Made by a program: the position numbers and the translations under genes. A stretch of DNA of 10,573 nucleotides from Nitrososphaeraceae archaeon (GTDB lineage Archaea; Thermoproteota; Nitrososphaeria; Nitrososphaerales; Nitrososphaeraceae). Location of the stretch: contig DATGZA010000096.1 in NCBI GenBank assembly GCA_035297365.1, positions 1-10,573 of the forward strand, written 5' to 3'. The notes under the pieces are model-generated. The model saw only the letters and a list, made by a program, of their open reading frames with translations, was not told where the DNA came from and made no database searches. Positions 1 to 10,573 of the stretch are shown here, one piece after another; position 1 is the stretch's first letter, and every line of letters begins with the position of its first letter.

Positions 1-111
1 ATCTATTGGAATACTTCTGCAAATGAATATTTTGAAGTTCTAACACAAAAAAACATATCTGTACTAACAAGCCATGTACTACCAGTACCAGACAATCAGC
101 AACAAGTATGA
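1..111 (+). CDS. 3' end of a hypothetical protein (partial)
   Basis: Frame 1 is open from the window edge: IYWNTSANEYFEVLTQKNISVLTSHVLPVPDNQQQV*, with TGA at 109-111. Confidence 0.4.
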   Translation: MYWNTSANEYFEVLTQKNISVLTSHVLPVPDNQQQV

Positions 112-167
112 CGACTACTAATACTTAACCAACTTTTTACATTAAAAAACTGAGTATTAAACCGAAA

Positions 168-749: not shown

Positions 750-926
750 TTACAATTTTAATTGATTTAGTAAATTTGATTTATAATTAATAGACTCCAC
801 GAGTTGAGCGCCGGGAGTGGGACTCGAATACCGAAAGAATACAACGAGATTTGTAAGGAATATCACTAAAATAGTAATGTTTATCGTTGTTGTGATTATC
901 GTTCTTAATCTTGTACCTCTTTTCAT
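750..926 (-). CDS. Possible signal-peptide/TM ORF running into repeat copy 1
   Basis: Hand translation, 58 aa: MKRGTRLRTIITTTINITILVIFLTNLVVFFRYSSPTPGAQLVESINYKSNLLNQLKL*. The residues YSSPTPGAQLVES are encoded by the repeat. Confidence 0.3.
   Translation of the reverse strand: MKRGTRLRTIITTTINITILVIFLTNLVVFFRYSSPTPGAQLVESINYKSNLLNQLKL
793..828 (-). repeat. tRNA-3'-end-derived att-like repeat, copy 1 (left arm plus core, ends at the T-loop)
   Basis: gactccacgagttgagcgccgggagtgggactcgaa. Minus strand TTCGAGT-CCCAC-TCCCGGC-G matches T-loop, T-stem 3' strand, acceptor 3' strand and discriminator. 33/36 identical to 7819-7854. Confidence 0.85.
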
Positions 927-1039
927 TGTGAGGGAACCAATATAGTAGAACGGAGGGTTATGTCTAATGAGCGTCCATCATCACGATGTGACATCTCATT
1001 AATCGGACATAACAACCTCAATATATTATGCATATTATC

Positions 1040-1071
1040 GCTTAATACGATTTTAGCTTAATACGATTTTA
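1040..1071. repeat. Perfect 16-bp tandem duplication
   Basis: gcttaatacgatttta at 1040-1055 and 1056-1071. Confidence 0.9.
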
Positions 1072-1202
1072 TAGGAAGGATCAAATCAATCAAGAGAAAA
1101 TATCTTCTGCTGCTCAGGTTATTGCTGGTAATAGTACTAATATCGCTATAATGATAAATTAGTTATTTGATTTAGATCGGTAAAAAAAAGGAGATTTTTG
1201 TC

Positions 1203-1460
1203 TTATCCTCCACAATCTGGGTCTTGTAAATCTATCAATGTGTCACGGTCATTGTCTATTCCATCCTGAGAGAAAAAACCAGATTCAATGATTGGAGGGT
1301 CAATTACTCCCGAATCTATTAGAAATTCTAATATTGCACCGACTTGTTGTAGGGTTATGTCTGGTATATTTTCGATAACCTTTATTACCTGAGTAGTTTC
1401 TTGTTCACTGTTTGGTGTATCAATTACAGTAGCAATATTGTTAGAGTAATTATAGGTTAA
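1203..1460 (-). pseudogene. 5'-truncated remnant of a protein ending in a DGIDND-type acidic metal/Ca-binding motif
   Basis: Open frame with no ATG: ...NIPDITLQQVGAILEFLIDSGVIDPPIIESGFFSQDGIDNDRDTLIDLQDPDCGG*. Resembles C-x-DGxDNDxDGLIDxxDPDC with the first Cys replaced by Ser. A T-tract follows on the minus strand (about 1182-1189). Confidence 0.6.
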
Positions 1461-1500
1461 TTAAACATTGATTAAAATAAAAAATAAAAAAGTTTGAATT

Positions 1501-1944
1501 TTAGAACATTACAATATGACCTGACTCATTACTTAATGTTATTCCTGGATAGTCTATTACGGATCCATTTGGTACAGGAGTAAGAAATTCGTCTGAGGCA
1601 TCAAATACCTCTACATTTGCAGTAGTAATTGTCCATCGTGAATCTGTAGTTGATTCCCTGCGAAGATATATTTTGTGCCTATTTACTTTCTCGATTGGGC
1701 CACCTCCGGACATATGTTGTCCACTTCTTGGGTCATTTAATTCCGGATCTTCAACATTGCTATTACTTCCAAATCTTAACTCTTGTTTTTTATTTTTTTC
1801 ATGAAAAGGATTTTCAGCATGATCACCTTGTCTTCTACACCTAAATTCCCGACCTCCAATGCCAAGAAATACGCGCTCATTACTATCTATCTCTTCATCT
1901 CCTGTTGTTACGGTAAGAATTATGTGATCTACTAATGCTACCAT
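1501..1944 (-). CDS. Hypothetical protein, PLAT/LH2-like beta-sandwich
   Basis: 147 aa. The pattern 'LTVTTGD...VFLGIGGREF...IYLR...W.I..ANVEV' recalls PLAT-like domains. AT-rich TATA-like region upstream and minus-strand T-tracts downstream. Confidence 0.65.
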   Translation of the reverse strand: MVALVDHIILTVTTGDEEIDSNERVFLGIGGREFRCRRQGDHAENPFHEKNKKQELRFGSNSNVEDPELNDPRSGQHMSGGGPIEKVNRHKIYLRRESTTDSRWTITTANVEVFDASDEFLTPVPNGSVIDYPGITLSNESGHIVMF

Positions 1945-2328
1945 TATTATTATATATTATTATAAGGTTTTTAAATATGATCTTTTAGATCTAGACTAAA
2001 CTTTTAAACTATATAACATGAAATTTTTTAACCCAGAAGATAAAAAACAACTGGATAATAGTAAAAATAATAATTCCAATTCTAATTTTAATTCTTTAGA
2101 TTAAAATGCTATCTTGAATCTACTAGAATATGATTCTGTTATATCTTTTGATGATCTAATTCGAAGTTAAATATAAACAAGCCACAGATTATAATTGATA
2201 CTCTTACAAAATTAATTGAAGATGAAATTATACTAGTAAAACAGAAGACGATAGGTTGTATTTTAGTCTTAAATATAAATAGAAAAATTCTATTTTAGAG
2301 ATACATTGAACATAAAATACTATTTTTC

Positions 2329-2497
2329 TCATTTAATTATTTTGAATTCATCAAACACTTCGCCGTTATTGGAATAGTATTTACCTATTAACGTATTTCC
2401 GTTATCATCTACATCGACATTTAAAAATCTAACTAGAATCTTGCTGGTATGCAACATAAGGTTCTTGATTGGTAAAAGGATCAAAATCAACCAGAGA
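2329..2497 (-). pseudogene. Frameshifted C-terminal remnant, probably of a calcineurin-like metallophosphoesterase
   Basis: SLVDFDPFTNQEPYVAYQQDSS, then a frame change to FLNVDVDDNGNTLIGKYYSNNGEVFDEFKIIK* (TGA 2329-2331). Resembles the 'GFL.VDV...L.G.FY..DG...D.F.I.K' C-terminus of purple-acid-phosphatase-like enzymes. Assigned by recall, not by search. Confidence 0.5.
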
Positions 2498-2735
2498 CCC
2501 CATATGGTAGTATTTTGATTTTAAAGTTTTTATTAATTTTTGTTGTGAAAGAAAGTATACTCATGTTATCTAGATTTGTCTATAAATACTCTATATAAAA
2601 TTTTTAATATTTAATAATCTCATATAATAATAGTATATTTTTTAGTATATTGTTAGATAAAAATATTCTATTTATAAAATTTATTTTAGTAGCATTTAGA
2701 CTTATTTTGTGAAACTTTAATATGTTCTTAAATAA

Positions 2736-2815
2736 TCCACAAATTGAGCACCGGGAGTGGCACTCGAACCTTCGTTCATCAGATGTGGATTCTACTTTCG
2801 AATATTAAAATATTC
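2736..2815 (-). repeat. tRNA-3'-end-derived att-like repeat, copy 2 (both arms, two core substitutions)
   Basis: tccacaaattgagcaccgggagtggcactcgaaccttcgttcatcagatgtggattctactttcgaatattaaaatattc. Confidence 0.85.
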
Positions 2816-3171
2816 GTTTAATTAAAAGATTATAGTTAGATATACCCAATCATACACCTTTTCATTAGTATAATTTTTTATTTTATCCGAGTCTTTTATC
2901 GAAGAGTTACATCATTTTTGCAATCTCGATAGTATTCATAATGTTATATTTTAGTTATTAGTCTTTAGTCCCCGAAATAACGATAAAAATACGTATTATT
3001 ATTTAATAATATTAATTATTCTTGTTAGTAAAAGTAGTCATCTATATATCATCTTATTATTAACATTATTAATAATTGATTCCTACAAAATATATCAGAA
3101 TTTATGTAAAATCATCTAAATAAACTATAATAAGATTAAATAATGTATGTATAAAAGTCATTATTATCACT

Positions 3172-4401
3172 TTGTCTCCAATAACTCAAATTCAAGACAA
3201 AAGTCATATTTTAGGAATCTATTCTTCACCACAGAGAAAAATAGAAGATGGTTTAGAATATCTTAGAATTGGATTTGAGGAAAATAATGAAGCAATATTA
3301 ATGATTACTAATGAACTAACTAAAAATGAAGTTAGAAATGAAATAATGAAAAGTTGGAAGATCTCTCCCAATAAATTGGTAGACCTAGAAAAAAATTCCA
3401 TTATAAATATCAAAAGTTCTACAGAAGTCTATTTTTCCACTAATAGAATAGATCGTGACAAGATTGGCAAACAGTTTTCTGATCTAGCAAATAAAGCAAT
3501 AGAGAAACGAAAAAGAGGTCTAAGGGCATTTGGAGATGTAAAAATCTTTTTTGAAAGAGGATATGAAAAATATATTATTGAATTTGAAAAATCATTTCCA
3601 CCTTCATTTGATTTTCCAATGACATCTATTTGTGCTTATGATTTAGATGATTTTGAAAAATTAGATCATCGATCTAGAAAAATACTTTTTGAACATCACA
3701 ACCTACATCTTACAAATAATCTATTTCGAAATATATTTGATGATTCATTTTCTCTTAGTCTGACTGAACATATTTGTATGTATTATGAGAACGAATTACA
3801 ATCTTCTTCTTTTTCTGATTCTTTTGTAACTAGTCTATCACGATATCTTGGTGAAGGATTACTACATAATCAATTATGTATTTATCTTTCTATGCATAAT
3901 ACGAAAAAAGATCATCCAAAAACAATACTATCACAACTTACTAATCTAAAAAAGTCTCCAATAAAAAAAAAGTTTATGGTAATTAAAAATAGTGATGATT
4001 ATTACATCAATGCAGTACGTAACAATCTAAAATCATTTGAAGATTTAAAAAAAGAAATTTTTGAGAAAGCAATACTAGGCAATAAAAAAGATATTAGAAT
4101 AGTATGTGATATTCCAAATTTTCTCTTTAGATATAAACATTTTGATCAGTGTATTGCTCTAGAAGAATGGTGGGATCAAACAATAGAAGAATTGAATAAA
4201 AATTATGGATTAAATGTATCGTTATTATGTCTATATGATAGTAATAATTTTAAAAATATTCCTTTTAAATATCATAGATATAGAATAAATGATATTCATA
4301 GTATTGTTTGTGATTCGGAGGGAATGGTACACTCAAAATATTCAAAATTTGATTCACTAACAGATAAGAGGAAAAGTGAGAAAGAAGGAGAAGGAAGATA
4401 A
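3172..4401 (+). CDS. Tandem MEDS-domain protein (2 x MEDS)
   Basis: 409 aa, TTG start. Domain 1: HILGIYSS...YLRIGFEENNE...GLRAFGD...EFE...SICAYD...LFEHH. Domain 2: EHICMYYE...YLGEGL...IRIVCD...LEEWW...LLCLYD...IHSIV. Confidence 0.85.
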   Translation: MSPITQIQDKSHILGIYSSPQRKIEDGLEYLRIGFEENNEAILMITNELTKNEVRNEIMKSWKISPNKLVDLEKNSIINIKSSTEVYFSTNRIDRDKIGKQFSDLANKAIEKRKRGLRAFGDVKIFFERGYEKYIIEFEKSFPPSFDFPMTSICAYDLDDFEKLDHRSRKILFEHHNLHLTNNLFRNIFDDSFSLSLTEHICMYYENELQSSSFSDSFVTSLSRYLGEGLLHNQLCIYLSMHNTKKDHPKTILSQLTNLKKSPIKKKFMVIKNSDDYYINAVRNNLKSFEDLKKEIFEKAILGNKKDIRIVCDIPNFLFRYKHFDQCIALEEWWDQTIEELNKNYGLNVSLLCLYDSNNFKNIPFKYHRYRINDIHSIVCDSEGMVHSKYSKFDSLTDKRKSEKEGEGR

Positions 4402-5409
4402 ATGTTAGAGGATATCGGAAATCATAATAATAATTATATTTCAAATAATAATAAGAAAAAAACAGTACTACTTGTTACGGGTAATATTCAATATTATCAA
4501 CAACAATTTAATAATTACAATATCAATAAGTACAAAATAACATTCCTCAATTGGAATGACATTTTGTCTTTTATTACAAATTTTGATGATACTAAACGTA
4601 AAAACCTTGAATTAATTATTTTAGATATTTCTACAGAAGCAAAAAATGCAAAGACCAATCAAATATCTACGAGCACTATCGGAGAAATCAAAAAAATATT
4701 TTATGATACAAGAATATTTTTTATATTACCATTTGAATCTATGATAGACAATTTACTATCTATAGGAATATGTAAACAAGAAGATATTCGTCTTCAACCA
4801 TTTTCAGTGTTTGATATAATAGATTTAATTTCCATCACAAAGAAAAATGAAAGGCTTGATCGACTACAATTAAAAGATCATTGTATGTATATATATTCTT
4901 CTGTTGACGATAAGGTCAAGGATGCAATTAAATTTCTAAAAATAGGAATAGAAAATAATGAAATGACTCTACTACTATTAAGCAAAGAGATTGAACCTTC
5001 TTATCTACTATGTCAAATTGCATTGCATGATATTGATATCAGTAAATTACAGAATAATGGATTATTGAAGATTGCCAATACTGAAGAATATTATTTATCC
5101 TTTAATCAAAAATACAATAAAATTAACACAGTAACAGTAGATAATAAAAAAGTACATAGCAACTTCTTAAATTTAGCAGATCAAGTTAACAAGAGAGAAG
5201 GAATTAATGGATTGCGAATATTTGCTATGCTTGATTGTTTCTTTGAACATGGTTTAGTTGATGAATTAGTTGATTATGAATGTGAAACTCCATTTAAATT
5301 TAGTAAACCAATTCTTGGAATATGTGCTTATAATGATAAGCATATAGCACAATTATCAGAAGATCAAATCAGAAAACTAGTATTAACTCATAGTAGTGTT
5401 TGGATATAA
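4402..5409 (+). CDS. Degenerate receiver-like domain plus MEDS domain protein
   Basis: 335 aa. N-terminal VLLV...LIILDI...IFFI...QPFS follows the REC pattern but lacks the acidic pair and the Lys. C-terminal DHCMYIYS...FLKIGIENNE...GLRIFA...LVDYE...GICAY...LVLTHSSV is MEDS. Purine-rich AAGGAGAAGG just upstream. Confidence 0.8.
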   Translation: MLEDIGNHNNNYISNNNKKKTVLLVTGNIQYYQQQFNNYNINKYKITFLNWNDILSFITNFDDTKRKNLELIILDISTEAKNAKTNQISTSTIGEIKKIFYDTRIFFILPFESMIDNLLSIGICKQEDIRLQPFSVFDIIDLISITKKNERLDRLQLKDHCMYIYSSVDDKVKDAIKFLKIGIENNEMTLLLLSKEIEPSYLLCQIALHDIDISKLQNNGLLKIANTEEYYLSFNQKYNKINTVTVDNKKVHSNFLNLADQVNKREGINGLRIFAMLDCFFEHGLVDELVDYECETPFKFSKPILGICAYNDKHIAQLSEDQIRKLVLTHSSVWI

Positions 5410-5455
5410 ATTTATTATTTCCTTCAATTTTTTATAATTATATTCTATTTATTAA

Positions 5456-5878
5456 TCACAATACCATCAATCGTTCTTTTTTATCATCTTGTTGTTGGTA
5501 GTTGGATAAAAGTGAATGAACGTTACTTCGTAATTCGTTTAACCAGATTGGTTTGTATATAACAATCTTTTCTATGTCTGGATTGTTTTTCTTTAGATGT
5601 TCTATGTACTCTTTATTTGCAGCAGTAATGAATCTAAATAATAGAGCGGGATCTATATTTTTCAATTTTTTAGATAATTTCATTCCATTCATTTTAGGCA
5701 TTTTCAAATCGAGTAAAGCAAGATTATATACATTTTTTCTAAAACAGTACAAAGCATCAATAGGATCGGTAAAAGCATCAACTTTATATCCATCATATTC
5801 TAAAAATGTTTTAAATAGATTAGTGAGATCTTCATCATCATCTACTATTAATATATTTTTACCTTTTGGAATAGGCAT
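5456..5878 (-). CDS. Stand-alone response regulator receiver (CheY-like)
   Basis: ILIVDDD, phosphoacceptor in LLDLKMPKMNG, FITA and YKP all present; no output domain. Confidence 0.93.
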   Translation of the reverse strand: MPIPKGKNILIVDDDEDLTNLFKTFLEYDGYKVDAFTDPIDALYCFRKNVYNLALLDLKMPKMNGMKLSKKLKNIDPALLFRFITAANKEYIEHLKKNNPDIEKIVIYKPIWLNELRSNVHSLLSNYQQQDDKKERLMVL

Positions 5879-5888
5879 TTTTACATGC

Positions 5889-5920
5889 TCACCTTGTTAA
5901 ACAACAATGTTCTTTATAAA
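5889..5920 (-). promoter_or_regulatory. Putative TATA box and Shine-Dalgarno for the receiver gene
   Basis: TTTATAAA at 5913-5920, and minus-strand GGTGA (5889-5893) 10 nt before the ATG at 5878. Confidence 0.45.
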
Positions 5921-6136
5921 GATGAGAGGAAATTATTAACAATTTAATTTAACAGATTAACATTTGTCTCGATAGATGTAAGATTATAATATTTTCGAGA
6001 ATAATTTTGAATATTCCAGATATATTGACATTCTTCACAATTCAGAAGTTTTTCTATTTCCTAATAATGGAATGCAATTATCCATATTTTGCTGTTAGAA
6101 GGAGTCATTATAAAAAAACGTGTACAACGTCTTTTT

Positions 6137-6766
6137 TCAATACTCTTTGTATCTAAAGCACTTTATCTCATGATCGTTTACCCTGCCGACTGCCTGCATA
6201 AAGGTATAGCAGATGGTGAAGCCGACAAAATTGAAACCGTGTTTAAGCAAGTCTTTGCTCATTGAATCAGACTTCTTAGTGTTGGTTGGAATATCTTTAA
6301 TTGTTTTGATTTTGTGATTGATCGGCATGCCGTCTACAAACTGCCAGATATAGACATCGAAAGTACCGCATTCTTTTTGAATTTTCAAAAATGCTTTGGG
6401 ATTCTAGATGGTAGATGCAATCTTCCAGCGATTACGAATAATCCCTGGATCACTAAGGAGTCGATTTACGTCTTCCTTCCCATAACAAACAATTTTGTCC
6501 GCATGGAAGCCATCAAATGCCCTACGGTAGTTTTCACGTTTGTTTAAAACGGTTTGCCATGTAAGACCTGCCTGGGTACCATCAAGAATTAGGAATTCAA
6601 AGAGCGTGCGATCGTCATGCACTGGTATACCCCACTCCTTGTCATGATACTCAATCGTGAGAGGATTATTAAATCCTGTCCAACTACACCGTCTTTTGTT
6701 GTACATTACATTTTCATTGGAGAAGATATAGTTACTTCTAGATATGGCATTCGACGATTTATCCAT
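6137..6766 (-). pseudogene. tag: DNA-3-methyladenine glycosylase I with an in-frame TAG
   Basis: ORFs 6404-6766 and 6137-6388 share one frame (630 nt), split by TAG at 6404-6406. Motifs: RCSW, YHDKEWGIPVHDDRTLFEFL, QAGLTW, IIRNR, GFNFVG, FMQAVGxVNDHxxxCF. Confidence 0.92.
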
Positions 6767-7191
6767 CTGCTTTAAAATAATATATCAATGATATTAAATA
6801 TTATGTAACCCACAGATGTTACATTAAAGCTAACCTTCTTGAAATGTTTCAACTGATGAAGATGGGAAGTTTTGATAGGAACAAGAATAAGCATATTTAT
6901 CCTCATTCTACGTTTTAGTAAAAACTATATTCAGGGTACCCGACACTTACCAGGAGTAATTGAAATAGATGCATTAGACTCTTTTAAAATGCTAAGTAGA
7001 CGTATTGGGAGAATAGAGAAATCTAATATTTCATTTCCTACATAGAAGTAAATGCATTGCTTTATAAAATGTATTTATTCTTCGGTAAAGTTTCTTTTTG
7101 GAAATAAATAAGTTATTCATACTTATAGTATTTTTTGATCTTTCTTAAATCTTGTTACTATGTAGATATTCCAAATGATAAATTATTAAAA

Positions 7192-7608
7192 TCAAATTTG
7201 TACAAGTGGCGGTGGAAAATAATTTGATAGAGATGAGCCATGATGATGAATTATTAACCATCTTTTCTGACTCCTATTATATTCAAATATATTAGTCGCA
7301 ACTACACCTGATTGAATTTTCACTTCATTTCGAAACATTTCTATATTCTCTAAGCACGTTATTACAGCAATACCCTCCTGATATATTCTGGTCTTTGAGT
7401 TATTAATTGTAAATTTAATATTTTCTGTATTGGCAAATATTGTCACCCAACTTTCACGAATTGCCATCCAGCCAACAAACATCTCCCAACCAGGATGTAT
7501 ACATACACAATTATCATTATGATTCCATATACTTTCCATCATAGTGATTGAGAGATTCTCGAATGCCTCGTAAAATTTGGTATTGGCATTTTCTATATCC
7601 TTTCGCAT
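7192..7608 (-). CDS. SnoaL-like / NTF2-fold protein
   Basis: ANTKFYEAFE...MESIW...CIHPGW...GWMAIRESW...ATNIFE...WLIIHHHGS is typical of SnoaL_3-type proteins. Confidence 0.9.
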   Translation of the reverse strand: MRKDIENANTKFYEAFENLSITMMESIWNHNDNCVCIHPGWEMFVGWMAIRESWVTIFANTENIKFTINNSKTRIYQEGIAVITCLENIEMFRNEVKIQSGVVATNIFEYNRSQKRWLIIHHHGSSLSNYFPPPLVQI

Positions 7609-7818
7609 ACTAATGACTAAATTTACATTTCCACTATCATATTAATATATTAAAAAAAGTTTCTTTTACTATATTATCATTTTTTTGTTGAGGACATATG
7701 ACTATATAAATAATTCAATGATGTTAAGATTAATATTTTTGACTATATGCTCTTCATGTCATTATATAGAAAATTGGTTTCGCCTATAGAAACAAATCTT
7801 GAATATTAGCAAAAATAT

Positions 7819-7900
7819 GACTCCACTAGTGAAGCGCCGGGAGTGGGACTCGAACCCTTATTCATCAAATGTGGGTTCTAACATTAGCTATTAAAATATT
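7819..7900 (-). repeat. tRNA-3'-end-derived att-like repeat, copy 3 (best preserved)
   Basis: gactccactagtgaagcgccgggagtgggactcgaacccttattcatcaaatgtgggttctaacattagctattaaaatatt. Minus-strand core GGGTTCGAGTCCCACTCCCGGCG at 7835-7857. Confidence 0.88.
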
Positions 7901-7903
7901 TAG

Positions 7904-7926
7904 TTAAATTAAATTAAATTAAATTA
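7904..7926. repeat. (TTAAA)n microsatellite beside repeat copy 3
   Basis: ttaaa x4 plus tta. Confidence 0.7.
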
Positions 7927-8410
7927 TTAGTTATGACGTATTTTGTGTTTTGACTCTTCATATGATCCTCTTATTGTGATCTATGTTTTATTATTTATAA
8001 AAACAATCTTATATTACAAAAAATAATTTAAACTTTCAAAACGAGTGGTTTAGAAACTTATTTCTGATGAAGTGAATTTATATACTCATTTCTAAATGTA
8101 ATTTTTAACCTAAAAATGAATAACATTTTTAAACACTTAAGTAACATGATTTGGAAAAATAAGAGAGAAAATGAAGAATTAAAAGACAAGGGAAAAAGAC
8201 CGAGATTTATGATGATCAAACCTTGGAAAATATTAAAAAATATTATAATATAGAAGATCATGAAGATTATTAAAATTTATCAAGTTAAATCGGTTAGTTA
8301 TTAACCTTGATGATTATTATGATGAAGATAATGATATTATTATAAATGAATCAATCTAAACAATAATGTTAACTTTATTTTTCAGTTGCTAATAACAGAT
8401 AATATTTTAT

Positions 8411-8776
8411 TTAACCAAGAAGACTTAGTTTTGCACATATAGCAAAACCTGTATGCGCGCAATCATCTGTGTGGCATAAAGTACAGAATGGGATACCATC
8501 AGTAAAAACAACATCAATATCTAAATTGTTGAGGTTATCATGAAGTAATATTTTGTTTTTTTCTCCTCCAATTGTGGTCAGAGTTAAGTGTATATTTCTT
8601 CTGTTATCTTCACCATAATTTCCGTCTCTAATTGATAGCCAGTGAGTAAAACATTCTATACCCTCCTCCACGTTGTTATTTTTAATTTCTGATATTGCAA
8701 ATTCATCATTGAGACTATTGTTCGTTTCAGGTAATACTGACATTAATTTATTGTTCCTCTGTGCCTCTTCCTTCAA
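8411..8776 (-). CDS. Hypothetical protein with a C-terminal CxxC-x4-CxH zinc-finger-like motif
   Basis: 121 aa, start uncertain (TTG). ILLHDN...DVVF..GIPFCTLCHTDDCAHTGFA. Confidence 0.65.
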   Translation of the reverse strand: MKEEAQRNNKLMSVLPETNNSLNDEFAISEIKNNNVEEGIECFTHWLSIRDGNYGEDNRRNIHLTLTTIGGEKNKILLHDNLNNLDIDVVFTDGIPFCTLCHTDDCAHTGFAICAKLSLLG

Positions 8777-9032
8777 TTAGAAAGAATTGATATCTATCCG
8801 ACAAATTTTATTGTGTTATACGTATAGTAAATGCCATATTTGAAGATATCTTTTGTAACAGTAATAACTATTGAATAGAACAAAAATTGTACAAACTCAT
8901 TGGTAATGGTAAAATAGTAATGTATTTGAATATTAGAGGATATTCCTCCGTTCTAGGAGCAACCACGAATATGAATGTAGAAGCATAGACTATGAATATA
9001 TCAGTCTTCAAATTCGCAAGATTTGAGAGAGA

Positions 9033-9088
9033 TGGGACTCGACCCTTATCCATCAAATGTGGGTTCCAATATGCGATATTAAAATATT
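9033..9088 (-). repeat. tRNA-derived att-like repeat, copy 4 (eroded core, right arm retained)
   Basis: tgggactcga-cccttatccatcaaatgtgggttccaatatgcgatattaaaatatt aligns with 7844-7900. The acceptor-strand part and left arm are absent. Confidence 0.8.
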
Positions 9089-9383
9089 ATCATGATATTA
9101 TCAATTTCATTCCTCAAATAGATTTGAAATACCCAACATAGATTCTTTCTATTCCAAATTCTGCGCTCTAATATTATTTGTTTTTCTATTCTAGAATAAT
9201 AAATTAATCTATTTGATATCTTAATTATATAATATTGTCCAAATTGATGATAATATACCAGTATTACTTAAATTATTACTACCTATTTTAACTTAAGAAA
9301 GTTTACTATAATAAATTGTATTAAATTGACTTCTAAATTTCTTTCAAAATGTCAATATACAGATATTTTCTAATACTCTATAA

Positions 9384-10573
9384 ATGGATAACTATAGGAA
9401 TAGTAAATATCATAAAATCCAAATATTATTCTTGACAACAATTTTATCTCTTAGTACAATTACAAATATAGTTTCAGTATCATCGTCTCCATCTTTTCCT
9501 ACATCTACATTTTTGAATGATGCCTTTGCATTTCAAGACAACGACAATAAAAATAAAGGTTATAATTATAATGATTATTATTCTACCAGTACTATTCCAA
9601 CTGCAGGAAATAGTAAACATCAACAAGTTATTGACTGTAGCAATGATAACGTGAATGTAAATGGAGTAGAATCTAACATAGATACTTTCTTTGAGGATGC
9701 CAACAATAATAATTTACATAACCAGATGCAGGATTTTACCCAAGATGAAAATACATATAATGATAACAACAATAATCGTAATGATAATTCTATCTTTGAG
9801 AACAAAAATCTTCTAAATATTTGCGCAAATTTGAATTTGAACAATCAACGCATTACCGTAGAACAACAACCAGAAGATGATAATGTATATGTTATCTGGA
9901 GAGATAACAGTAACGGCGGCGACATAGATGTCTTCTTTAGAGTTAGTAACAACAACGGACAGACATTCAATCCTGTTATTGATCTAAGTAATAATGATGG
10001 AGTCTCCGGCGGTGATCTGCAGATGCTTGTCTCCGGAAACAATGTATATGTTGTTTGGACAGATGAAAGCAATGGTGGAGATACCGATGTCTTTTTTAGG
10101 ACAAGTAACAACAACGGACAGACATTCAACCCTTTTATTGATTTGAGTGATAATGATGGAGACTCACACGATGATCTGCAGATGCTTGTCTCCGGTAACA
10201 ATGTATATGTTATCTGGTATGACCGGACTAACGGCGGCGACAGAGATGTCTTCTTCAGAGCAAGTAACAACAACGGACAGACATTCAACCCTTTTATTGA
10301 TTTGAGTGACAATAATGGAGACTTGGAAATCTTTCCTCAGATGCTTGTCTCCGGTAACAATGTCTACGTTGTGTGGGAAGATAATAGTAACGGCGGCGAC
10401 TTTGATATCTTCTTTAGAGTTAGTAACAACAACGGACAGACATTCAACCCTTTTATTGATTTAAGCAGCAATAATGGAGAGTCCCTTATACCTCAGATGC
10501 TTGTCTCCGGTAACAATGTATATGTTATCTGGGATGACCGGACTAACGGCGGCGACAGAGATGTCTTCTTCAG
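9384..10573 (+). CDS. Secreted Asp-box/BNR-repeat beta-propeller (sialidase-like fold) protein, partial
   Basis: Absent from the ORF track because it has no stop in the window. ATG at 9384: MDNYRNSKYHKIQILFLTTILSLSTITNIV...DAFA (signal peptide-like), then an Asn/Asp-rich region, then repeats of NVYV(I/V)WxDxxNGGDxD(V/I)FFRxSNNNGQTFNPxIDLSxNxGxxxxxQMLVSGN. Confidence 0.9.
   Translation, partial: MDNYRNSKYHKIQILFLTTILSLSTITNIVSVSSSPSFPTSTFLNDAFAFQDNDNKNKGYNYNDYYSTSTIPTAGNSKHQQVIDCSNDNVNVNGVESNIDTFFEDANNNNLHNQMQDFTQDENTYNDNNNNRNDNSIFENKNLLNICANLNLNNQRITVEQQPEDDNVYVIWRDNSNGGDIDVFFRVSNNNGQTFNPVIDLSNNDGVSGGDLQMLVSGNNVYVVWTDESNGGDTDVFFRTSNNNGQTFNPFIDLSDNDGDSHDDLQMLVSGNNVYVIWYDRTNGGDRDVFFRASNNNGQTFNPFIDLSDNNGDLEIFPQMLVSGNNVYVVWEDNSNGGDFDIFFRVSNNNGQTFNPFIDLSSNNGESLIPQMLVSGNNVYVIWDDRTNGGDRDVFF
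9882..10573 (+). repeat. Intragenic 159-bp (53-aa) tandem repeats, 4 full plus 1 partial
   Basis: Units start at 9882, 10041, 10200, 10359 and 10515 (periods 159, 159, 159, 156). Confidence 0.95.

Follow-up and report, generated by a model that had tools for sequence, protein, structure and literature searches.

Genomic Setting and the Four Repeat Copies

The stretch of DNA analysed here (hereafter the window) is the entire contig C96 (GenBank DATGZA010000096.1; 10,573 nt) of a Nitrososphaeraceae archaeon whose genome comprises 2.52 Mb in 110 contigs, with 30.5% G+C. The window carries four copies of a composite repeat, in which conserved arms adjoin all or part of the 3′ end of a tRNA-Ser gene, and which divide it into blocks of cargo genes. 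These repeats, which are likely to be junction sites left by integrative elements at the tRNA gene, are our subject.

A repeat search of the window reproduced two overlapping families, with every copy on one strand. The 36-nt family (D5) occupies 793–828, 2733–2768 (83%), and 7819–7854 (92%), at spacings of 1940 and 5086 nt; the 47-nt family (D3) occupies 2768–2814 (74%), 7854–7900, and 9042–9088 (87%), at spacings of 5086 and 1188 nt, the last value being 1188 instead of 1189 because copy 4 has a 1-nt deletion. An earlier note on this DNA, made from the sequence alone, had described four same-orientation copies at spacings of 1940, 5086, and 1189, with a left arm in copies 1–3 and a right arm in copies 2–4, and the two families bear out this description.

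Copy 3 (7819–7900, on the minus strand like the others) is a complete junction, consisting of a left arm (7819–7834), a tRNA 3′ end (7835–7857), and a right arm (7858–7900) that holds the repeat ATGTGGGTTCTAA (7869–7881) and TATTAAAATATT (7889–7900). Copy 2 (2733–2814) has the same order: left arm (2733–2748), tRNA-derived segment with three mismatches to copy 3 (2749–2771), and right arm (2772–2814) with the repeat ATGTGGATTCTAC (2783–2795) and TATTAAAATATT (2803–2814). Read on the minus strand, both copies begin with a 45-nt arm (AATATTTTAATA, about 10 variable nt, and GAACCCACATTTGATGAATAA), continue with GGGTTCGAGTCCCACTCCCGGCG, and end in about 16 nt of the form CT(C/T)(A/C)A(C/T)T..GTGGA(G/T)T(C/A). 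In copy 1 (793–828; core profile E 2e-5 in the window), a 16-nt left arm (793–808) is joined to 20 nt of the tRNA-Ser 3′ end, from T-loop to discriminator (809–828), and the right flank differs from the 45-nt right arm, being instead a second type of distal arm (type B, 829–898) with homologues at two junctions in the sister genome G017 and at C9:52466. An extension of the proximal arm of copy 1 (747–792, beginning TATTAATTATAAAT) recurs after three G017 cores and at a junction in another sister genome, G014. Copy 4 (9009–9088) keeps only the right arm (repeat at 9057–9069, TATTAAAATATT at 9077–9088) and a T-loop remnant with the 1-nt deletion (9032–9045); its acceptor part and left arm (9009–9031) are degenerate, and this degenerate proximal end also travels with the 1.19-kb unit between copies 3 and 4 in G014 and G017.

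A right-arm profile made from 21 sites (20 from sister genomes, plus copy 3) and run against the whole genome recovered copy 2 (E 4e-12) and copy 4 (E 9e-14). An additional decayed attachment (att) site was sought between the genes of the 5.1-kb unit that separates copies 2 and 3 and was not found there, and ARAGORN and Rfam detected no tRNA in the window and no RNA gene or Rfam family at the copies. The type-B flank of copy 1 was considered as a longer tRNA fragment, a candidate that was dropped when the same arm was found on C9 beside the 3′ end of a different tRNA gene; there the arm stands next to an integrase pseudogene and to a 3′ end displaced from the C47 tRNA.

The Cognate tRNA Gene

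Copy 3 is identical at 25/25 nt to the 3′ end of a tRNA gene on contig C54 (1264–1288), as the earlier proposal of tRNA-derived att sites in direct orientation had led one to expect. The gene lies at C54:1264–1390 on the minus strand, where the 124 nt around the match start with GCCGGGG and end with TCCCGGCG. Once 17 nt inserted in its D-loop region are taken out, ARAGORN recognizes a tRNA-Ser(CGA) with a 20-nt canonical intron, and without either insert, an 86-nt tRNA-Ser(CGA); of the two isotypes put forward earlier, Ser and Asn, it is therefore Ser. The unedited gene was missed by both ARAGORN and Rfam (which gave only an 18-nt tmRNA-like T-arm match), and none of the 33 matches of the Rfam tRNA model in the genome falls at C54 or C96, so that tRNA counts for this genome are underestimated. 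Each of the five relatives searched has one full-length tRNA-Ser(CGA), in every case next to one and the same helicase gene (740–754 aa). Copies with its 3′ end occur here on C96 and C54 only, along with a weaker T-loop-only match at C11:130776; the genome-wide scatter in random orientation that would have pointed to a dispersed element was not seen among these copies.

The right end of the window is taken up by the 5′ part of a BNR/Asp-box repeat gene (9384–10573, plus strand), which runs off the contig and probably belongs to the tRNA-proximal unit. Its only 5′-open partner in the genome is C54:3–893: after about 60 nt of GC-rich sequence, C54 lies inside a plus-strand BNR-repeat gene with a stop at 893. 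Just one other BNR locus exists in the genome, and it is complete and internal to C11. Since the 3′-open gene of the window and the 5′-open gene of C54 form the sole such pair, the tRNA gene most likely lies beyond the right edge of the window on the minus strand, where the earlier note had predicted an intact tRNA; the placement depends on this one inference. In the simplest join of C96 to C54, which the split BNR gene makes quite probable, the tRNA would lie about 1.3 kb past the end of the BNR gene. No BNR gene was found near the tRNA in the loci of relatives. Five tandem 159-nt (53-aa) BNR repeats with 68–99% identity occupy 9861–10573 and are the likely cause of the assembly break at this end. 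At the other end, an exact 140-nt repeat shared by four contig ends (window 1–140, C47:1–140, C9:53224–53363, and C51:3006–3145) creates a two-by-two assembly ambiguity; one path would lead from the left end of the window to the att core and integrase pseudogene on C9, and synteny with G014 favours C51 as the putative left neighbour.

Attachment-Site Architecture in the Genus

We compared the window with 24 sister genomes, whose public records name them as Nitrososphaeraceae or Candidatus Nitrosocosmicus, and with an outgroup of 16 genomes from other families of the order. A 36-nt motif made of the arm and the T-loop (≤3 mismatches) is present in 18/24 sister genomes and in 0/16 of the others, and a reversed control gave 0 matches; on all five contigs that have two matches, both are on one strand. 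The right arm, with its TATA-like box and 13-nt repeat GTAGAACCCACAT, is the distal arm conserved in a family of integrative elements that spans the genus.

The attP of this family is made up of the distal arm with the TATA-like box and the GTAGAACCCACAT repeat, an 11-nt spacer, the tRNA segment from T-loop to discriminator, a 6-nt spacer, and an inverted copy of the GTAGAACCCACAT repeat, with the integrase gene 60–130 nt further on. At integrase-bearing loci the tRNA is directly followed by CTTCGGATGTGGGTTCTAC, the final 13 nt of which are the inverted complement of GTAGAACCCACAT. The distal repeat (≤1 mismatch) is found in 19/21 arms and the TATA-like box (≤1 mismatch) in 18/21, while the proximal repeat (≤2 mismatches) is found in 10 of 18 integrase-proximal arms, against a chance expectation of 0.00035 per random 36-nt window. 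The left arm of the window copies has the position of the proximal inverted repeat and matches it in part (8/13 in copies 1 and 2); the left arm of copy 3 is closest to the arm of L050, an integrase-bearing locus.

Because the TATA-like box stands about 26 nt upstream of a conserved ATG, the repeats might be read as small expressed genes, either a promoter with a tRNA 3′-half (a split tRNA) or a leaderless peptide gene that starts at the arm ATG. We hold this to be very improbable: open reading frames (ORFs) from the ATG are 9–48 aa long and not conserved past the core at the 21 sites, the tRNA part begins only at the T-stem, a complete tRNA-Ser(CGA) gene exists, and no Rfam family matches at the repeats. 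The right arm was also tried as the start of a split integrase of the Sulfolobus spindle-shaped virus (SSV) kind or of a peptide gene, and these candidates were rejected on the same short, unconserved frames.

The Integrase in Relatives and in This Genome

Immediately behind the tRNA, relatives encode a tyrosine integrase of 430–516 aa. In G017, 76 nt separate the tRNA from a 516-aa ORF (L038:2809–4359) that matches Phage_integrase (PF00589, E 6e-9) and the phrog_1 integrase (E 4e-22) and contains RHSALT and VYIHL stretches, as expected of a tyrosine recombinase. Homologues of this protein are found at 23 loci, 12 of which have a complete tRNA-Ser directly upstream (seven identified by BLAST to the CGA gene, five by ARAGORN calls of GCT or GGA), and at several of the other loci a tRNA 3′ fragment lies upstream. 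Two loci (L042 and L046) are whole elements, with tRNA, integrase, 6–11 kb of cargo, and then the 45-nt arm and a repeated core, and in a third (L048) arm, core, and integrase follow one another, the order predicted where one tandem element borders the next. An integrase linked to the same att arms is found in relatives at L038, L042, L046, and L048. The earlier note had described the cargo segments as integrase-free; the system is not so by nature, the sites belonging to an ordinary integrase-encoding family with the gene after the tRNA in 12/23 loci. Comparison of these sequences firmly indicates that the repeats are att junctions of a tRNA-Ser-specific tyrosine-integrase family.

Alternatively, the copies could belong to a tRNA-derived dispersed repeat, similar to a miniature inverted-repeat transposable element or a short interspersed nuclear element, that multiplies by transposition or retroposition and has nothing to do with site-specific integration. 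Degenerate right arms elsewhere in the genome (C60:52482–52540, C11:107816–107874, C11:120505–120565, and C7:47792–47849) fit such a repeat, as do tRNA-Ser 3′ fragments on both strands at several G017 loci. The restriction of tRNA-Ser(CGA) 3′-end copies to C96 and C54 in this genome, the direct orientation of all window copies and of the five same-contig pairs, and the physical linkage of the arm to the integrase elements in L042, L046, and L048 all speak against it, and no fixed-size unit with terminal inverted repeats or target duplications was seen; we regard it as very improbable.

In the window itself, no integrase was detected by Pfam (nine ORFs), PHROGs (four ORFs), or tblastn with nine family integrases (no match at E < 0.1), in agreement with the earlier statement that no recombinase lies between the sites. 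The same tblastn search of the whole genome matched only four places: a pseudogene with stops (C9:51029–52281), two N-terminal fragments (C14:125305–125811 and C47:1965–2330), and a 417-aa ORF (C12:33265–34717) that is 26% identical to the tRNA-Ser family and is preceded by a tRNA whose anticodon loop reads TTCGTAA, along with a second T-loop-like piece. This C12 integrase is the only intact tRNA-adjacent integrase found in the genome. This genome holds only broken copies of the tRNA-Ser integrase family, and the nearby integrase that the earlier note suggested looking for was found in relatives, and here as pseudogene copies only. Traces of integrase decay beside att sites were seen in G014, G010, C14, and C47.

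Gain, Loss, and Reordering of Blocks

The sister genome G017 is 92–96% identical to this genome over syntenic core DNA. It contains the 1.19-kb unit with its 121-aa gene (91%) and the block with the SnoaL-like gene (91%), with other neighbours and the other arm type, and in the junction alignment the sequence switches inside GGGTTCGAGTCCCA, within the T-loop. The crossover is placed in or next to the T-loop of tRNA-Ser. G014 also contains copy 4 and the 121-aa unit (93%). The junction after this unit combines a right arm of the copy 3 type with the core and with the left side of copy 1, both arm and flank, as in a window from which the 7,026 bp separating copy 1 from copy 3 had been taken out. 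On the proximal side of its copy 4, G014 further retains a core with the inverted repeat and roughly 50 codons from the start of an integrase gene. G018 has the two MEDS genes and the response-regulator gene of the 5.1-kb unit between two right arms, without the Tag and SnoaL genes, and the neighbours of the 1.19-kb unit are different in each of the three genomes that have it. The comparison of strains thus reveals the gain, loss, and reordering, with breakpoints in the core, by which the earlier note had proposed that its reading be judged.

The G017 units form an island inside a 1.8-Mb contig, with a flank syntenic with C11:41–85 kb and with the full tRNA on another contig; in G012, fragments occur on the strand opposite to the tRNA, at a distance of 120 kb from it. 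These locations indicate that units also move, or ride rearrangements, between islands. In the present genome, C11 has a second variable island at about 86–145 kb (L026, L027), with two degenerate right arms, a T-loop fragment (130778), and the complete BNR gene. The C11 island and the G017 island that holds the window-like units have shuffled segments in common.

Copies 1–3 are spanned, at 95–99% identity, by contigs of soil metagenomes from four studies, four runs in all, which indicates that the array is stable in related populations. Positions 9179–9884 are uncovered in these runs, and at 9066 one X5 contig departs from the window, which reflects a lack of cover and nothing more. A joint that skips 2749–2841 in soil contigs has a depth of 3 and 26 nt on its short side. 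Another joint, which goes back 1189 nt between copies 4 and 3, was considered as a circle and rejected, its short side of 36 nt being the product of repeat mapping.

Cargo Units

No integrase homologue is found in any of the three internal units of the window, and the BNR gene region on the window and C54 is likewise free of an integrase. Unit 1 (829–2732) contains a 147-aa ORF (1501–1944, minus strand) with no Pfam or PHROG family; at 2433–2490 within this unit, contigs of all four soil runs pile up and diverge on both sides, so that this segment resembles a piece of some widely conserved sequence. Five genes, distributed over both strands, make up the 5.1-kb unit: two adjacent MEDS-domain genes (3172–4401 and 4402–5409, plus strand; PF14417, E 1e-23 and 4.5e-14) and, on the minus strand, genes for a response-regulator receiver (5456–5878; PF00072, E 4e-18), a 3-methyladenine glycosylase (Tag, 6137–6766; PF03352, E 8e-75 read through with X), and a SnoaL-like protein (7192–7608; PF13474, E 3e-24), the last being the first gene after copy 3 and part of the 91% identical block that has another neighbour in G017. 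The Tag gene has an in-frame TAG at 6404–6406 and is otherwise well conserved; its G010 homologue is intact (205 aa). The sole gene of the 1.19-kb unit, which is 91–93% identical in G017 and G014, is a 121-aa ORF (8411–8776, minus strand) with no Pfam or PHROG family. An Atlas search with this protein returned only unnamed Nitrososphaerota clusters and a weak SWIM lead with a score of 0.83. The family is multi-copy in 21/24 sister genomes and shows a CxxC...CxH pattern, and an 85% identical paralogue (C54:5764–6123) lies in conserved chromosome, about 4.4 kb beyond the tRNA on its other side. A 60-aa ORF of the window matches no Pfam family and gives a single weak match in PHROGs (E 0.005). 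The cargo genes are unrelated to one another, as noted earlier, except for the two adjacent MEDS genes, which are paralogues.

Among 20 units between consecutive att sites at 13 loci, 16 have no integrase homologue, two have a fragment, and two have the full gene. L006 was omitted from this count as a duplicate of L046, and L060 (core, integrase fragment, arm) was not counted, its core being below the profile threshold; the 13 loci were chosen through att or integrase matches and are therefore not a random sample. The shortest units, at 0.64–1.5 kb, have one gene. At 17 of 23 non-duplicate sites (20/26 before the duplicates L046 = L006 and L033 = L009 were dropped), the first ORF that follows a distal arm shares the orientation of that arm. 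First ORFs in the window lie about 260–840 nt from the TATA-like box and start 235–813 nt past the site.

These figures raise the question of whether the array is a genuine cassette platform, in which units bounded by complete sites never had an integrase and are captured, excised, and shuffled in trans by the family integrase, much as an integron would do, with the TATA-like box of each distal arm driving transcription of the unit that comes next. The large share of units without an integrase trace (16/20) and the short one-gene units accord with this, as does the sharp end of site conservation after the left arm in copies 1–3, with no remnant of the region upstream of an integrase. So do the three neighbour sets of the 1.19-kb unit, the presence of the G017 units at a different chromosomal island, the co-orientation of first ORFs at 17/23 sites, and the TATA-like box in 18/21 arms. 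Set against these are the integrase fragments beside att sites, which show that decay does occur, the five genes on both strands of the 5.1-kb unit, the wide gap that separates TATA-like box and first ORF in the window, the failure of the search to find an intact cognate integrase in this genome, the want of a circle or empty-site joint in the contigs of the soil runs, and the fact that the sites counted are related to one another and were selected via the motif. On balance we think it unlikely that the units are cassettes of this kind. A related proposal, that the locus is an archaeal counterpart of a cassette platform, in which the integrases of autonomous sister elements capture units, shuffle them between islands, and delete them in trans, and in which the TATA-like box of the distal arm transcribes the neighbouring unit, we put forward tentatively and likewise hold to be rather unlikely.

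Probable Serial Accretion at tRNA-Ser

The reading that we prefer, and consider likely, is that the four repeats are junction sites of tyrosine-integrase elements that inserted in the 3′ end of the tRNA-Ser(CGA) gene of a Nitrosocosmicus-like archaeon, and that the array grew by serial accretion, its integrase-less units being similar to the cis-mobilizable elements (CIMEs) of bacteria. Integration at the T-loop would rebuild the tRNA and push the old 3′ end behind the element. Re-use of the site would stack further units, with each internal junction again forming a full attP-like site, and recombination between cores could then remove, add, or move units. An integrase encoded elsewhere or on an incoming element would act on them, as described for bacterial CIMEs and accretion. 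The array in this genome is probably frozen.

Several points weigh against serial accretion or qualify it. Copy 4, which is nearest to the tRNA and is therefore expected to be the youngest junction, is the most degenerate of the four. No remnant of an integrase, or of the sequence upstream of one, is present in the window units, although random deletion would be expected to leave some behind, as it did in G014, G010, C14, and C47. Simple decay is not a full account: the high share of trace-free units and the sharp ends of the sites are not fully explained by it. The G017 units lie away from the full tRNA, and such arrays are therefore not always at the tRNA. No circle or empty-site joint was seen in the contigs of the four soil runs. 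The 7-kb loss in G014 could equally stem from homologous recombination between the 36-nt repeats, which would look the same as integrase action in these data. The join of C96 to C54 depends on a split repeat gene, with no overlapping sequence, and the first ~60 nt of C54, GC-rich and unlike the rest of the genome, look foreign and are probably a chimeric contig end. The genome, finally, is a metagenome bin of 110 contigs, and an intact integrase could be unassembled or unbinned.

Nitrosocosmicus species are ammonia oxidisers abundant in soil, and little is known of how they acquire accessory genes. The locus sets out how att sites are built in an element family that spans the genus (arm, inverted repeats, and T-loop core) and points to the likely integrase; the blocks in these arrays mostly lack a recombinase of their own and are nevertheless exchanged precisely where the sites lie. 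Should an integrase serve the blocks in trans, the arrays would amount to an archaeal gene-capture platform. If not, the locus is a clean case of accretion and decay at a tRNA hotspot, and the att motif would still be useful for finding islands missed by integrase-based searches.

Comparison with Known Systems

An integron consists of a tyrosine recombinase (IntI), an attI site, and cassettes with attC sites. The array resembles it in having ordered, same-orientation sites that separate unrelated cargo without a recombinase of its own. It differs in that there is no integrase or attI platform beside the array (none in the window or on C54), the family integrase instead following and targeting the tRNA; in that the sites are tRNA-derived, double-strand att sites with a 45-nt arm, not folded attC sites; and in that the 5.1-kb unit is multi-gene with both strands coding, whereas integron cassettes are mostly single, co-oriented, promoterless ORFs. 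The likeness to an integron drawn in the earlier note is functional at most, and the closest known models are tandem accretion and CIMEs.

In the suicidal integration of SSV-type elements, the att site lies inside the integrase ORF, and Int(N) and Int(C) halves are left at the borders. SSV-type integrases and gene capture in archaeal chromosomes were reportedly described by She and colleagues in 2001. Here the att site lies outside the integrase ORF, which starts 60–130 nt after it, and frames through the core are 9–48 aa at the 21 sites. The array shares with SSV-type gene capture the fixing of DNA at a tRNA in an archaeal chromosome after loss of the integrase (PMC7253208). In Thermococcales, an integrase drives chromosomal rearrangement between att-like sites (PMC5495485); a similar process, though with a different integrase family, could by analogy have led to the G017 units at another island and the opposite-strand fragments in G012.

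Elements of Thaumarchaeota that encode tyrosine recombinases are integrated in tRNA genes, including intron-bearing ones, with flanking direct repeats (Krupovic et al. 2019, PMC6563490; PMC8371274), and for archaea both arrays formed by re-use of the site and loss of the integrase after integration have been reported (PMC6563490, PMC8371274). The thaumarchaeal elements of PMC6563490 are defined by having an integrase and are at least 2.6 kb long, whereas the window units have none, and the repeat here (about 36–44 nt, plus the 45-nt conserved arm) is longer than most att sites in that paper. In the main text of PMC6563490 the name Nitrosocosmicus has 0 occurrences, and within the literature that was searched, neither att sites built like these nor Nitrosocosmicus arrays at tRNA-Ser are described.

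The array agrees most closely with the accretion and CIME scheme of streptococcal elements, which integrate at the 3′ ends of tRNA or other genes and, on decay, leave units with attL and attR and no integrase; a new element that enters a resident att site gives a tandem array with chimeric internal att sites (PMC5704250). In contrast to the streptococcal CIMEs, the host here is an archaeon and no conjugation genes are in sight, and the arrays consist of many short units (0.6–5 kb), most of them without a trace of an integrase and only putatively mobilised. The kind of system is already known; what is new is the genus-wide occurrence of arrays of short integrase-free units, together with the architecture of their sites.

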